A DNA stretch of 64,000 nucleotides, taken from the sequence record LC494302.1; one strand, written 5' to 3'. The DNA is from Escherichia phage SP27. The notes beneath the pieces are model-generated. The model was not told where the DNA came from. It did not search any database and was given only the letters and a program-made list of their open reading frames with translations. A program made the translations under genes and the position numbers. Positions 2,925 through 46,567 of this stretch are shown here, piece by piece. Positions within the stretch are counted from its first letter, which is position 1. The number at the start of each line of letters is the position of its first letter.

Positions 2925-3757
2925 TTATGTCATTAGAAAAAATAATCATTTCTGAATTCCGAAAGTATATCATGGATTGTGATAGAGATGTACAGCGTAA
3001 GTTCAATGAGTACCTTGACAAATATCCGTATTTGATGTTTAATCCGTTTGAAACTGATGATGATTTATATCTTGGTTTTTACATAGGATTTACTCAACGA
3101 ATTCTTCATAAAGATGAAATGAAACAATCTGAGATTTGGGTAGAAACTGACTCATCCGAGTCTAATGTTTTTTATCTTTATACATATTATGCCGAAATTG
3201 TTAGAGATACGACACCTGATGGTTGTCTATTTGTACAATCTTCTGATATTGAAAGAATATATATCGAACCTGTATCTTTAGATATGGTTGCACAGCTTCC
3301 AACTATCCAACAGTTAGGTGCAGACGAATTAACTTATTCTGTATTTGAATATCTAGGTAGAGATGATTTGACTCAAGAAATTGATAAAATGGTTTCTAAA
3401 TATACTTCATCACTTATTTCGAATGGTAAACTTAAATTAGAACTAATTTTTGAAGATACTAGTATTAATCCAGTAAGAGGGGTTACAATTGGAAAAGTTA
3501 CCATACGTGTTGTTTACGATAATGAAGTACTAGGATATATTTCAAAACGTGGACATGATTTATGTATAATTAGTACATTCGTTATTTCTCGTAAAAAATG
3601 GAATGATTTAATGCAAAAAATCGTGGACGGCAGTAAAATTCGTGATATAATATGTAATGACATGGTAATTATGAATCCTGATGTTGACTGTGATGTATAT
3701 TTTCCAGTTCCTGGATTTACACGAGAAAACTTTAGTAAATTGAAGGATACGAAATGA
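2921..3757 (+). CDS. hypothetical protein
   Basis: 278 aa ORF, overlapping start/stop with neighbours. Confidence 0.55.
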   Translation: MIMSLEKIIISEFRKYIMDCDRDVQRKFNEYLDKYPYLMFNPFETDDDLYLGFYIGFTQRILHKDEMKQSEIWVETDSSESNVFYLYTYYAEIVRDTTPDGCLFVQSSDIERIYIEPVSLDMVAQLPTIQQLGADELTYSVFEYLGRDDLTQEIDKMVSKYTSSLISNGKLKLELIFEDTSINPVRGVTIGKVTIRVVYDNEVLGYISKRGHDLCIISTFVISRKKWNDLMQKIVDGSKIRDIICNDMVIMNPDVDCDVYFPVPGFTRENFSKLKDTK

Positions 3758-39207: not shown

Positions 39208-39244
39208 AAAAGGGTTGACTTCGGTCAGCCTTTTTTGTTATGAT
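39208..39244 (+). promoter_or_regulatory. PeSL-like terminator/promoter hybrid
   Basis: AAAAGGGTTGAC-ttcg-GTCAGCCTTTTTT; TTGACT-18-TATGAT. Confidence 0.6.
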
Positions 39245-42797: not shown

Positions 42798-43049
42798 ATG
42801 AAAATATTATTAGTTCTAATACTACTAATAGTTTTACCATTTACTTTAGTATCCCCTGGACTTGCATGGAATGTATTTGTGTACTTAGTATGTACTATTG
42901 TAGTAAATGGTATCTTGTTCTTAGTTCTATTCATAAATGGAATAGGACACGGTGGAGGATGGACCAGTACTGCTGATATCGTACATAAAACCACTATGTC
43001 TTTATTTGTAATGTGGAATTTGTTCTGGACTTGGTTTGTGTTCTTCTAA
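42798..43049 (+). CDS. small membrane protein
   Basis: 83 aa, three hydrophobic helices, GTGAGGCG RBS. Confidence 0.4.
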   Translation: MKILLVLILLIVLPFTLVSPGLAWNVFVYLVCTIVVNGILFLVLFINGIGHGGGWTSTADIVHKTTMSLFVMWNLFWTWFVFF

Positions 43050-43057
43050 TTAAAAAT

Positions 43058-43429
43058 ATGAATATAGATTTGAAAGGTGCAACCCGAACTGTTATCCTCA
43101 TTGGGGAATACGCTATCAAGATTCCAACCTTCAAAAGCTGGAAGTTATTCCTAACTGGAATGATAGCTAACCTCAATGAACGTTCATGGATGCAGTACTC
43201 CAATCGTAGTGATAGTGGTATCTGCCCTACTTTGTGGTCATCATGTACAGGACTAGTAACTGTACAGAAACGTTGTAAGCCAGTTCAACATAGGGGTTTA
43301 TTTTGGGTGGAGTTGTGTGCTTTAGCATTGAATTCAGAGTTAAGTACTGACTTCTTTTATTCAGATGCGAAGCCAGAAAACTTTGGTTATCTGAATGGTA
43401 AGTTAGTTAAACTTGATTATGGAGATTAA
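43058..43429 (+). CDS. truncated eukaryotic-like protein-kinase-fold protein
   Basis: GEYAIKIP (VAIK-like), SDAKPENFG (HRDxKPEN-like), KLVKLDYG (DFG-like); ORF stops two residues after DYG. Confidence 0.5.
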   Translation: MNIDLKGATRTVILIGEYAIKIPTFKSWKLFLTGMIANLNERSWMQYSNRSDSGICPTLWSSCTGLVTVQKRCKPVQHRGLFWVELCALALNSELSTDFFYSDAKPENFGYLNGKLVKLDYGD

Positions 43430-43430
43430 G

Positions 43431-43700
43431 ATGTACGCACTGTATAATAAAGAAAAGAAACGATTTGCTAAGGTTGAAATTTCGATTGATACCTTTGATA
43501 TGTTGGAGTACTGTATTGTGACGGACCTATATGCTAACTTGTATTACGTTCTTGATGACGTATCAGTACTGCAACGATTGCTTGAGAATTCCAAAAGTCA
43601 ATGCCAGGGCATCCATGATGGTTCATCTTATGAAACACCTGAGTGTTCCTACGGCTATCTGGACGGGTATGAGATTGTGAAGTTGGGGATTGTTGAATAA
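43431..43700 (+). CDS. hypothetical protein
   Basis: 89 aa, follows kinase-like ORF. Confidence 0.4.
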   Translation: MYALYNKEKKRFAKVEISIDTFDMLEYCIVTDLYANLYYVLDDVSVLQRLLENSKSQCQGIHDGSSYETPECSYGYLDGYEIVKLGIVE

Positions 43701-43703
43701 AGA

Positions 43704-43739
43704 AAAGGGTTGACTACGGTCAGCCCTTTTTGCTATAAT
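43704..43739 (+). promoter_or_regulatory. PeSL-like terminator/promoter hybrid
   Basis: AAAAGGGTTGAC-tacg-GTCAGCCCTTTTT; TTGACT-18-TATAAT. Confidence 0.65.
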
Positions 43740-43767
43740 CATTTCATCGAAACGAGAGGATGAATAC

Positions 43768-44283
43768 ATGACACGCATTAACTTAGTACACGTTAAAGAA
43801 CTTGCTGACCAACATCTGATGGCTGAATATCGTGAACTCCCACGTGTATTTGGTGCTGTACAAAAACACGTTCAAGCACGTAAGCGTGTACGTGATTTCA
43901 AAATTAACAGTACTTATCTGTTAGGTTCAGGTCATGTGACATTCTTTTACGACAAGTTGCTGTACTTACAGAAGCGTCATATCGATATTGTTAACGAATG
44001 TTTGCGTCGTGGTATGAAGATTCAAAACACTGAAGTAAACGACATTAGCGGCTTCCCTGCTGAGTTTTGTAATGACTACGTACCAACGGAGTCAGAGATT
44101 AAAATGTCTCGTGATCGTTTGATTGAGAAGCTCCAGATGAAGCCTACGTGGTATAAGTTTACTGATGTTGAATGTCCACAGTACGTTAAAGATATGCAGA
44201 ACGTAAGTAGTAAGAACGAATCTAGTACTGATATGTTCGACGAAATTGAAGAACAAATCAAAGATGAAATGAATAATTATTAA
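43768..44283 (+). CDS. denV: endonuclease V (pyrimidine-dimer DNA glycosylase/AP lyase)
   Basis: [50 protein letters not shown] matches T4 endonuclease V as I recall it over most of its length. Confidence 0.8.
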
Positions 44284-44287
44284 AGGA

Positions 44288-44304
44288 AAGGGTTGACTTC
44301 GGTT
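44288..44304 (+). repeat. truncated PeSL remnant (5' arm only)
   Basis: AAGGGTTGACTTCGGTT then unrelated sequence. Confidence 0.45.
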
Positions 44305-44321
44305 ACACAAAGGAACATAAC

Positions 44322-44516
44322 ATGTTATTAGTATATTCAACGCGTTTCTGGATTTCTTTTATTGTACTATCGCTAATCGGCTTCGGTTTGAGTATACTCT
44401 TTTCGTGGGATGAATTGGGTACATGGTATTATGAAGTCCCGTGGTACATGAAGATAGCTCCTTGTTATGCGGCATTGTTCGTGTCATTCCTTATTGTTGT
44501 CTTCAGCGAGGATTAG
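44322..44516 (+). CDS. small membrane protein
   Basis: 64 aa; PWYMK motif shared with array B member at 46911. Confidence 0.4.
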   Translation: MLLVYSTRFWISFIVLSLIGFGLSILFSWDELGTWYYEVPWYMKIAPCYAALFVSFLIVVFSED

Positions 44517-44622
44517 TTGATGTAGTATGTGCTACACCAAAGTATTTGGATATTTTAGATATAAACATTGACACCTGTTATATCTTTCTGTATTATGTAC
44601 ATCACCAAATGAGGAATACAAC

Positions 44623-44982
44623 ATGGCATCTTTAAGTGAAATCGCAGAATACAACCCACTAACAATCTCAACAATTCAACGTACAAAAACTTTTTATTTC
44701 CGTCCTGCTGATGGATGGAAACGTGGAATGAATGGTGACTATCGAGTACTGGAAGATTCACTAATCGAGCGTATCAACTCTGAACTACAGAAGTATGAAG
44801 GTGTTAAAGTTGTGCGTTCAACTTCTCGTTATTTTGAGTACTACATTGAGTCTTCAACTGTAAATGAAAACTCATCATTATCGGTGGACAACACTGATAT
44901 TCTTCGTAATGCAGTTGGTATGTTATGCAACATTGCAGAAGAAATGGGATTAACTATTAGTACTATGAGTGAGTTGGAATAA
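44623..44982 (+). CDS. hypothetical protein
   Basis: 119 aa, GAGGAATA RBS. Confidence 0.5.
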   Translation: MASLSEIAEYNPLTISTIQRTKTFYFRPADGWKRGMNGDYRVLEDSLIERINSELQKYEGVKVVRSTSRYFEYYIESSTVNENSSLSVDNTDILRNAVGMLCNIAEEMGLTISTMSELE

Positions 44983-44984
44983 CA

Positions 44985-45020
44985 TAAAGGGTTGACTTCG
45001 GTCAGCCCTTTTTGCTATAA
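44985..45020 (+). promoter_or_regulatory. PeSL-like terminator/promoter hybrid
   Basis: AAAGGGTTGAC-ttcg-GTCAGCCCTTTTT; TTGACT-18-TATAAT. Confidence 0.65.
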
Positions 45021-45049
45021 TTATTTCATCAACTGAAGAGGGTAAAGAA

Positions 45050-45820
45050 ATGACCAGAGAAGCACGCAGCATTCAAATTCAGAAAAACTTCAACTCCATG
45101 ATGGTTGCTCTTGAGTGTTTGCTCGATGATAGCAGTACTGTAAAAAGTATGGTTGTCAGTGGTGCTCCTGGTGTTGGTAAGACTTACACCTTGTCCCAAC
45201 GTCTCCAGAAGGCTCATGACGCAGCAGAATGGAACGTAGCTACTATCAGTGGTAAGATGACTACACTGGCTCTGTACGAAGTTCTGTACAAGAATCGTCA
45301 CAGCACCAACGTGTTAGTACTGGATGATATGGACAGCATCTTTGATTCTGAAGACGGTATGAACCTGCTCAAAGCTGTTTTGGATAGTGGTAAGCGTACT
45401 GTATCTTATATGACTAGCTCTAAGTACTTGAGCACTAACGGCATTCCTAATAGCTTTGATTTTAATGGTCGCATCGTATTCATTACTAACAAAGATTTAG
45501 CGTTAGATGCTAAAGCTAAAACTAAAATGTCTGCTCATTATGCTGCTCTTATGTCTCGTTCTGTGTACGTGGATTTACAGATTCAGACTAAAAGTGATAT
45601 CATGATTCATATTGAAAATGTAATGACTAAGACTAATATCCTTGCATCTAAAGGTGTTAACAGTAACGGTAGTAAAGCAATTCTGAACTGGATGTTAAAA
45701 CATGAAGATAATCTTCGTGCACCATCCCTGCGTATGCCTTTGTTGATTTCAGCAGTATATAACAACAATCCGTATGATTGGGAAGAACAATGTGAAAACT
45801 TGTTCCTTGAGAAAATCTAA
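45050..45820 (+). CDS. P-loop NTPase (AAA+-like)
   Basis: Walker A GAPGVGKT, Walker B-like VLVLDDMD. Confidence 0.55.
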   Translation: MTREARSIQIQKNFNSMMVALECLLDDSSTVKSMVVSGAPGVGKTYTLSQRLQKAHDAAEWNVATISGKMTTLALYEVLYKNRHSTNVLVLDDMDSIFDSEDGMNLLKAVLDSGKRTVSYMTSSKYLSTNGIPNSFDFNGRIVFITNKDLALDAKAKTKMSAHYAALMSRSVYVDLQIQTKSDIMIHIENVMTKTNILASKGVNSNGSKAILNWMLKHEDNLRAPSLRMPLLISAVYNNNPYDWEEQCENLFLEKI

Positions 45821-45887: not shown

Positions 45888-46229
45888 ATGCTTGAGTTTT
45901 TTAATTCAGATACAATGCTTGGTATCACGCTAATTTACATGTTTGTATTCTTGTTTTATCATTCAATTGTAATTAGTCTTTGGTATTTTAAAAGGAAAGT
46001 TGTTTTTAAATTGTATTCGTATGATAATGTACTCTTAGTAGTATATAGCATTATACAAGGTGGGTTTATTTTATTTGGTGTGATGACATATGTGATTTAC
46101 ATGTTACAAATTGATAATACACCACACATTACACAATATGTTGTGTTTTCAGGACTAATCGTCTGGTTATTGGTGTGTACTCTGTATTTTATTATTAAAG
46201 CTCGTGATAACTTTAAATGGGGATTCTAA
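45888..46229 (+). CDS. small multi-TM protein, array B member 1
   Basis: MLEFFNSDTMLGITLIYMF; 113 aa. Confidence 0.5.
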   Translation: MLEFFNSDTMLGITLIYMFVFLFYHSIVISLWYFKRKVVFKLYSYDNVLLVVYSIIQGGFILFGVMTYVIYMLQIDNTPHITQYVVFSGLIVWLLVCTLYFIIKARDNFKWGF

Positions 46230-46567
46230 TGTTAGAATTTTTTAAATCAGATACAATGATTAGTATTACTTTGATTTATCTGTTTGGTTTTTTCTTTTAT
46301 CATGCACTAGTTGTAGTACTATGGTATTTTAAAAAGAAAATTGTTTTTAAACTGTATCCAGTGAGGAATTCATCACTAGTTCTTTACACACTTGTTCAAG
46401 GTTTGTTTGCAATTGTTGGTCTTATGGCACACTTAATTTATTGTGCCAATCCTCACTTGAACTCAATCTCACAATATATTGTATTCTTTGGGTTGTTCAT
46501 TTGGTTAGTTGTATACTTAATCCATCTCATTATTCATGGTAGAGATAAAATTCGCGGAGACTTCTAA
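46229..46567 (+). CDS. small multi-TM protein, array B member 2
   Basis: MLEFFKSDTMISITLIYLF, clear paralog; TAATG coupling. Confidence 0.5.
   Translation: MLEFFKSDTMISITLIYLFGFFFYHALVVVLWYFKKKIVFKLYPVRNSSLVLYTLVQGLFAIVGLMAHLIYCANPHLNSISQYIVFFGLFIWLVVYLIHLIIHGRDKIRGDF

Follow-up and report, generated by a model that had tools for sequence, protein, structure and literature searches.

A truncated promoter stem-loop behind denV in an Asteriusvirus genome as the probable scar of an illegitimate junction that accompanies the small gene g218

In the 64,000-nt stretch of phage DNA analysed here (the window), the endonuclease V homologue denV lies between a complete promoter-early stem-loop (PeSL) and a second copy of which only the 5′ part is left. 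This arrangement raises the question of which gene has moved. The original prediction was that denV had been inserted or exchanged as a unit and that the downstream element had been broken in the process. PeSLs were described in the T4-type phages RB49 and phi1 (Arbiol et al. 2010, PMC2839356) and in T4/PST and KVP40/nt-1 (Comeau, Arbiol and Krisch 2014, PMC4122927); the term was coined for T4-type phages and is applied to the window elements by analogy. In a sequence search, positions 43000-45100 showed 97-98% identity to the Asteriusvirus jumbo coliphages G17, Sharanji, 121Q and CRJP21, and an identical record was not among the matches; judged by its sequence, the source of the window is an Asteriusvirus (121Q/PBECO4-like jumbo coliphage) and not an RB49/T4-type phage. 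We compared the denV neighbourhood in 19 Asteriusvirus genomes and in two outgroups, Klebsiella phage OU509535 and Erwinia phage Kaldavass. The features concerned, with the evidence used for each, are as follows.

43700-43739, with leader to 43767, + strand: full PeSL-type element AAGAAAAGGGTTGACTACGGTCAGCCCTTTTTGCTATAAT (sequence, folding, promoter scan)
43768..44283, + strand: denV, predicted pyrimidine-dimer DNA glycosylase (T4 endonuclease V homologue), 171-aa 'long-tail' allele (PF03013, PDB 2END)
44287..44305, + strand: PeSL remnant consisting of the A-tract, 5′ arm, loop and first 3′-arm bases (sequence, folding, scans, relatives)
44306..44321, + strand: putative relic of a foreign 105-aa gene, comprising its final codons and its stop, ..CAC AAA GGA ACA TAA (contigs L023-L025, Munch)
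44322..44516, + strand: g218, 64-aa protein with two hydrophobic segments (database matches, dN/dS)
44568..44596, + strand: plain sigma-70-type promoter TTGACA-17-TATTAT, no hairpin, 5′ of g219 (promoter scan)
44623..44982, + strand: g219, an ORFan (ORF list, relatives)
44986..45049, + strand: second full PeSL with leader, directly 5′ of g223 (sequence, folding, promoter scan)
45050..45820, + strand: g223, predicted AAA-type ATPase, conserved downstream anchor of the variable stretch (profile match; 45% aa identity in Kaldavass)

As read from its sequence, this genome has composite elements, nearly identical to one another, interspersed through its early region; in each, a G+C-rich hairpin with a T-run overlaps a sigma-70 promoter. 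The -35 box would lie in the 5′ arm and the -10 box right past the T-run, hairpin and T-run forming a putative intrinsic terminator. A complete copy 5′ of denV was indeed present at 43700-43739. Its hairpin (43702-43731) folds at -19.7 kcal/mol (z -6.07) and that of the second full copy at -18.3 kcal/mol (z about -6), with 0/200 shuffles as stable. The promoter scan called TTGACT-18-TATAAT at 43710-43739 and 44992-45021, both with an 11/12 promoter match and TG ahead of the -10 box. In the element upstream of denV, the -35 box TTGACT (43710-43715) is located inside the 5′ arm, and the extended -10 TGCTATAAT, which includes TATAAT (43734-43739), ends at 43739, after the T-run. The site is intergenic, preceded by a stop codon in A/T-rich sequence and followed by the ribosome-binding sequence and start codon of the adjoining gene: the g216 stop (43698-43700) is followed by the element, by the leader CATTTCATCGAAACGAGAGG carrying a Shine-Dalgarno sequence (GAGG, 43755-43759) and by the denV ATG at 43768; 44986-45050 is laid out alike.

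Where 0.01 would be expected, 7 sites in the window carried the full-hairpin pattern; they lie between 33.3 and 45.0 kb, and each is on the + strand. Every related locus contains more copies. A simple terminator scan made no call at the full hairpins, a miss that we read as the maximal stem swallowing part of the T-run. Folding energies were used in its place, together with the ARNold terminators annotated in the G17 record, which fall at the equivalents of this stretch's three full copies, including the one upstream of denV, with none at the remnant. The denV-upstream element is thus predicted to terminate g216 transcription and, probably, to start the denV transcript. By sequence, the window elements display the features of PeSLs: sigma-70-like hexamers with 17 +/- 1 nt spacing, a stable stem-loop at or overlapping the promoter, intergenic placement, repetition within a variable, ORFan-rich region, and association with breakpoints (see below). 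They depart from the description of PeSLs as elements of T4-type myoviruses, a matter of taxonomic scope rather than of mechanism.

The identification of denV as an endonuclease V homologue also stood. Its product matched Pfam PF03013 (E 5.9e-15, 55.8 bits for a cut-off of 23) and, over residues 1-131, T4 endonuclease V (PDB 2END, E 2.4e-54), with about 67% aa identity to T4-type endonuclease V in this range; both the family profile and the solved enzyme are therefore matched. Thr2, Arg3 and Glu23 of the T4 enzyme were seen in the alignment (N-terminus MTRINL); Thr2 and Glu23 we take to be its catalytic residues. On these matches denV encodes a pyrimidine-dimer DNA glycosylase, with predicted glycosylase and AP-lyase activity on cyclobutane dimers. 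Compared with T4 endonuclease V (2END, 1VAS; PF03013), the window protein is longer (171 aa versus 138 aa), and its residues past about 135 form a derived, acidic C-terminal extension confined to part of the genus, whereas the short 144-aa allele of other Asteriusviruses and of the outgroups is T4-like. Two C-terminal alleles can be distinguished in all (window 44172-44283), of 144 and 171 aa. The long one seems to have arisen by a +2 frameshift that carries translation through the former stop region (Klebsiella GGAT--AAGTAATAATATAG versus long GGACGTAAGTAGTAATATAG), and among the 19 relatives examined a PeSL or PeSL remnant 3′ of denV was found only with this long allele.

The position of denV turned out to be fixed. 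In all 20 relatives examined, outgroups included, denV and an upstream PeSL with conserved leader were found at this position, and the sequence 5′ of that element was variable. Homologues of g211/g212 are located upstream of denV in the Klebsiella phage, and a g223 homologue downstream of it in Kaldavass. Because denV and its upstream PeSL are fixed in this way, denV appears to be an old resident and a conserved anchor instead of a recently inserted cassette, and together they would form an old, fixed transcription unit. The idea of denV as a moving unit could not be upheld. A conserved denV context with intact flanking synteny in relatives would speak against it, and we found such conservation for denV itself, not for its surroundings. 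An older movement is suggested by the degree of identity: since denV (window 43768-44160) is about 67% identical to T4-type denV while three other genes shared with contig L024 are just 39-80% identical, denV may have been transferred from or exchanged with T4-like coliphages in ancient times, before these genera.

A comparison of relatives had been proposed in order to look for presence or absence of denV with breakpoints at the PeSLs. No relative without denV was found among those examined. The breakpoints were: homology blocks ended at 43689-43708 in 14/19 relatives and at 44980-45053 in 13/19, and insertions, deletions or replacements between close relatives had their limits at the elements, PeSL edges being the main homology breakpoints in the denV neighbourhood. 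Others were located outside the elements, namely a g214 indel (42761/43055), the denV tail switch (44171) and positions 44526 and 44563. The g220-g222 cassette has the appearance of a textbook PeSL-by-PeSL indel, the pattern that exchange from one element to another would leave. Between two full PeSLs at 44986 it occupies 1.3-2.1 kb in G17, 121Q and other relatives (L001 4978-6469; L002 4978-7230), while the window and UE-S1 are without it; the single PeSL at window 44981-45053 aligns to both G17 copies.

Further variation was seen on both sides of denV. Several relatives carry a 414-nt ORF, absent from the window, between the g216 stop and the denV PeSL (window point 43700/43701; L003 3716-4129, L015 3215-3628, L016 3215-3628, L019 3716-4129, L010 4714-5127). 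It is annotated as HNH endonuclease in EcMJ, fEgEco12 and WPEC3 and as hypothetical protein in EC.P1 and ph0011, and the same slot holds shorter pieces in UB (195 nt, annotated HNH), SHEFM2K (83 bp) and ELP-22. In A4 (L018 about 3440-3460), g216 is deleted between the 12-nt direct repeats AATAAAGAAAAG (window 43446-43457 and 43696-43707), the second of which forms the A-rich sequence bordering the denV PeSL on its 5′ side. Salmonella phage SD-15_S21 (L009 3154-3933) has a denV-g219 in-frame fusion, a 780-nt ORF derived from the short-tail arrangement by a deletion of ~85 bp with 2-nt microhomology that may be genuine or may reflect an error of assembly. In JNE01, a g219-like gene (L006 3739-4120; 77% nt identity) is located upstream of denV, within a 1.5-kb insert with its own variant PeSL AAAGGTTGACAGTAGTCATCCCTTTCTATATAAT, and gene order around denV is shuffled. 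The g219 gene is absent from BF17, fEgEco12, EC.P1 and Ecwhy_1, and its promoter (44568-44596) is common to short-tail genomes such as PBECO4. Further downstream (window 45888-46567), the tandem paralogues g224 and g225 are about 79% nt identical over their 5′ parts and have homologues in series in relatives; their products are small, largely hydrophobic and probably membrane proteins.

The downstream copy, as had been noticed, keeps the 5′ arm only. It starts three bases past the denV stop, and its first 17 nt, AAAGGGTTGACTTCGGT (44287-44303), agree base for base with those of the full copies at 39209 and 44986, after which the sequence diverges (TACACAAAGGAAC...). The rest of the 3′ arm, the T-run and the -10 box are missing and the -35 box alone is kept. 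The promoter scan made no call at the remnant, and its folding energy (-2.7 kcal/mol, z +0.76) was no better than that of shuffles, so that no stable stem-loop is left. The orphan 3′ half of the element was not found anywhere in the 64,000-nt window. With up to 1 mismatch, the 17-mer occurred 5 times in the window against 0.00 expected, and 0/100 shuffles gave any match.

Among relatives, three states were observed 3′ of denV. In state 1 (BF17, fEgEco12 and EC.P1), an intact element whose 5′ flank (AATAATTATTAAAGGAAAGGGTTGACTTCGGTCAGCCCTTTTTGCTATAAT) is that of the window comes after the long-tail denV (171 aa), so that denV is flanked by two intact PeSLs; g218 is absent, and the next gene is either g223 directly (fEgEco12, EC.P1) or a g220-like gene (BF17). 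The homology of these genomes to the window stops at exactly 44303. In state 2, the long-tail denV is followed by the remnant and then by g218. This was read directly in the window, 121Q, G17, UB, EcMJ, Ecwhy_1, ELP-22, UE-S1 and JNE01; in Sharanji, CRJP21, E9.1 and JP4 the query 44284-44562 is matched over its full length at 98-99%, which places them in the same state. In state 3 (PBECO4, SHEFM2K, WPEC3, CMSTMSU, Turkey5 and A4), denV is short-tailed (144 aa) and no element follows it.

Thirteen database records (12 phages), all Asteriusvirus, contain g218, and in all of them the match to the query begins at the remnant's first base and covers 100% or 87% of that query. The junction, GGTCA joined to CACAAAGGAAC, i.e. 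GGTCA joined to CACA(A/T)AAGGAACATAACATG, was read in nine relatives and in the window. Because the ancestral remnant AAAGGGTTGACTTCGGTCA with the adjoining CACAAAGGAACATAACATG is common to all state-2 genomes, i.e. to all those bearing g218, the remnant appears to have arisen once. The window differs from this ancestral form by C>T at 44304. Substitutions in the remnant differ by lineage, with GGTTA in the window group, GGA in JNE01, ELP-22 and UE-S1, and TTAAC in EcMJ and Ecwhy_1, a pattern that fits a loss of constraint and function. Since the remnant accompanies g218 in all 13 records, the break would be tied to g218 and not to denV. The original view of a downstream element broken by recombination is thereby retained as far as the scar itself is concerned, and given up for the arrival of denV as its cause. 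Both denV tail sub-alleles occur with both the intact element and the remnant. The full-element genomes could be secondary, via recombination between the 19-nt remnant and a downstream PeSL.

We then considered g218 and the bases that separate it from the remnant. The g218 product is probably a small membrane protein. Its dN/dS values of 0.07-0.26 indicate purifying selection, the ORF was intact in all copies read, and g218 appears to be a real gene. An IMG/VR search returned 121Q itself only. A search of 5.8 billion proteins returned two diverged homologues, with 83% and 80% aa identity, on the metagenomic contigs L023-L025. In these contigs the g218 homologue belongs to a tight operon and starts 1 nt past a 105-aa gene, whose end, ..AAG TGC ACA CGT AAA GGA ACA TAA, reads ..AAGTGCACACGTAAAGGAACATAA(C/T)ATG into the g218 homologue. 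The window sequence CACAAAGGAACATAA (44306-44320) corresponds to the 3′ end of this 105-aa gene except for a 2-nt gap, and this homology is only about 17 nt long. The bases 3′ of the break match the coding 3′ end of the 105-aa gene in L023-L025 and are for this reason read as a piece of a foreign gene, which establishes where the junction sequence comes from; the relic would now serve only as the predicted ribosome-binding region of g218. At the other side, the stop codon of g218 (44516) marks the limit of the homology between the window and the donor-like operon. The 46 nt between this stop and the g219 promoter (44517-44562) begin with 10 nt common to JNE01 and Ecwhy_1, which then differ.

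PeSLs of this kind are present on the contigs too, as is a kinase with 60% identity to that of the window, and because of this we regard the contigs as parts of related jumbo phages. They are short (2-4.6 kb) and 80-86% identical in g218, and thus represent a donor-like context, not the donor itself. Values of dS against L024, compared with a view to dating the g218 transfer, were 1.29 for g218 and 1.79 for the kinase, both near saturation, and a recent transfer does not follow from them. The 105-aa family is also present in the Salmonella phages Munch, 7t3, SE_PL and PHA46 and in Klebsiella phage fENko-Kae01. In each of these five genomes the aligned part extends to residue 104 of 105, and the C-terminus, read directly in Munch only, is ..LKCTRSGL*. 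No g218 match was obtained in these five phages in the annotated phage collection. The slot 3′ of the 105-aa gene is variable: in Munch (L026 1818-1871) a full PeSL occupies it, ahead of the next small membrane-protein gene, and in L024 (2385-2584) and L025 it holds the g218 homologue and no PeSL. By this comparison the slot is itself an exchange site.

The best explanation of these data, to which we give a probability of roughly 0.78, is that the remnant is an illegitimate-recombination scar joining a PeSL once located behind denV to operon-internal DNA carrying g218. In the long-tail denV lineage, a second full element would once have followed the denV stop. The half element (44287-44305) would be the left junction of a single illegitimate event with at most 2 nt of microhomology, 'CA' (GGTCA versus GTGCACAC). 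Through this event the downstream element would have been linked, shortly after its loop, to sequence from within another phage operon. Complete g218 would thereby have been brought in, preceded by the ~15 nt that end the 105-aa gene, with loss of the 3′ arm, T-run and -10 box. As to direction and route, which we infer from the sequence comparison, capture of a piece of ~215 bp from a co-infecting related jumbo phage seems most likely, a deletion in cis being the less likely alternative. The site would then be left with neither termination nor initiation. Because hairpin, T-run and -10 box are gone from the remnant, g218 and denV probably share a transcript, formed by read-through from the denV promoter, and g218 would be translated from the relic ribosome-binding site.

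A route by deletion in cis, which we regard as unlikely, would start from an ancestor with the order denV-PeSL-genes-105-aa gene-g218; the deletion would begin in the PeSL 3′ arm and stop where the 105-aa gene ends, and no foreign DNA would be involved. The junction sequence is equally compatible with it, and the g216 loss of A4 and the denV-g219 fusion of SD-15_S21 are examples of short-homology deletions in this region. Neither the 105-aa gene nor any intermediate was, however, found in any Asteriusvirus record searched. Moreover, the operon adjoins the kinase gene in L024 and Munch, whereas the kinase gene of the window lies 4.5 kb upstream of denV, in a different order; and the end of the donor-like homology at the g218 stop would require a second, independent right-hand breakpoint.

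That denV, bounded by two PeSLs, was itself inserted or swapped as a cassette, with damage to the downstream PeSL in that event, is in our judgement very improbable. Several observations are in its favour: the two intact PeSLs on either side of denV in BF17, fEgEco12 and EC.P1; the coming and going of PeSL-bounded cassettes nearby, such as the 220-222 cassette at 44981-45053; shifts of identity across the upstream PeSL in several pairwise comparisons; and the identity to T4 endoV, with the ancient transfer that it suggests. The identity shifts can nevertheless reflect stronger constraint on denV than on the surrounding ORFans. Against it, denV and its upstream PeSL are constant even in the outgroups, the break accompanies g218, and the bases that follow the break derive from the former upstream neighbour of g218.

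We give hardly any credence to an internal deletion of about 27 nt between short TCA repeats in a full PeSL that once drove g218. The bases in question, CACAAAGGAACA, do show weak similarity to the leader of the g220 PeSL, CAACACAAGAGGTAACA, but that alignment needs three indels in 20 nt and the same bases fit the 3′ end of the 105-aa gene far better (16/16, then CACAC past the 2-nt gap). In addition, g218 behind a full PeSL was found in none of the 13 g218 records of the annotated phage collection, searched by DNA and by protein. This candidate was dropped once the donor-like operon context had been found. Finally, a chance resemblance with no derivation from a PeSL, which only the short length of the remnant could favour, has a negligible probability given the exact 17-nt match, never reproduced by shuffling, and the complete element with identical 5′ flank at the same position in three relatives.

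Taken together, these results align base by base three states of one site: recipient-like (BF17, fEgEco12, EC.P1), product (the window, 121Q, G17 and others) and donor-like (the metagenome contigs, Munch). They point to the entry of a small gene via an illegitimate junction inside a regulatory hairpin, at the cost of a terminator and a promoter, and they extend PeSL-type modular shuffling from T4-type phages to the Rak2/121Q jumbo phages, in which most genes are ORFans. A warning for annotation follows: a repeat-flanked, 'cassette-like' gene need not be the one that moved. For phage engineering, PeSL edges would be naturally tolerated insertion points. A broader and more speculative idea, which we consider doubtful, is that PeSL hairpins in jumbo phages are preferred sites of illegitimate joining, for example through replication stalling and template switching during mixed infection, and so capture promoterless ORFs from operon interiors into existing units; half-PeSLs would be the scars of such events.

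The window elements resemble the PeSLs of RB49 and phi1 in many respects (PMC2839356). Both are intergenic, combine a near-consensus sigma-70 promoter with a stable G/C-rich stem-loop, have a stop codon within A/T-rich sequence on one side and the Shine-Dalgarno sequence with the start codon of the following gene on the other, and are repeated in ORFan-rich early regions, at breakpoints of insertions, deletions and replacements; in a subclass of the RB49/phi1 elements the stem-loop overlaps the -35 box, as in the window. Differences concern the host, here a ~350-kb Rak2-like jumbo phage (Asteriusvirus) instead of a T4-type phage, and the uniformity of the copies, which is far greater in the window (near-identity over about 36 nt, together with a conserved leader). 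The window hairpin and T-run also have the canonical form of an intrinsic terminator, unlike the RB49/phi1 PeSLs. For the latter, promoter and terminator activity and mini-circles are experimental (PMC2839356), whereas promoter and terminator activity of the window elements is predicted from sequence. The stem consensus of the nt-1 pair, A3-4G3-loop-C3T3-4 (PMC4122927), has the same form as AAAGGG...CCCTTT in the window, and the PeSLs of T4/PST and KVP40/nt-1 were assigned the same role, that of an exchange point between otherwise unrelated sequences; the promoter hexamers (TTGYVH/TAWWAT in nt-1 versus TTGACT/TATAAT in the window) and the phage family differ.

The event at 44305 would be an illegitimate junction within one element, unlike the PeSL-by-PeSL homologous exchange described previously (PMC4122927). 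The wording 'remnant' or 'partial PeSL' was not found in PMC2839356 or PMC4122927, and half elements appear undiscussed there. A literature search (full text; titles and abstracts) returned no PeSL or recombination analysis for Asteriusvirus or Rak2-like phages; RpoD-like early promoters were reported for the Rak2-like phage CBB, the text of whose paper gave no match to 'stem-loop' or 'hairpin'.

A second comparison concerns g218. In lambdoid phages, a moron brings its own promoter and terminator. Like a moron, g218 is a single accessory ORF added between two resident genes. It differs in having brought neither promoter nor terminator: its arrival would have destroyed the resident ones, and it is predicted to ride the denV transcript.
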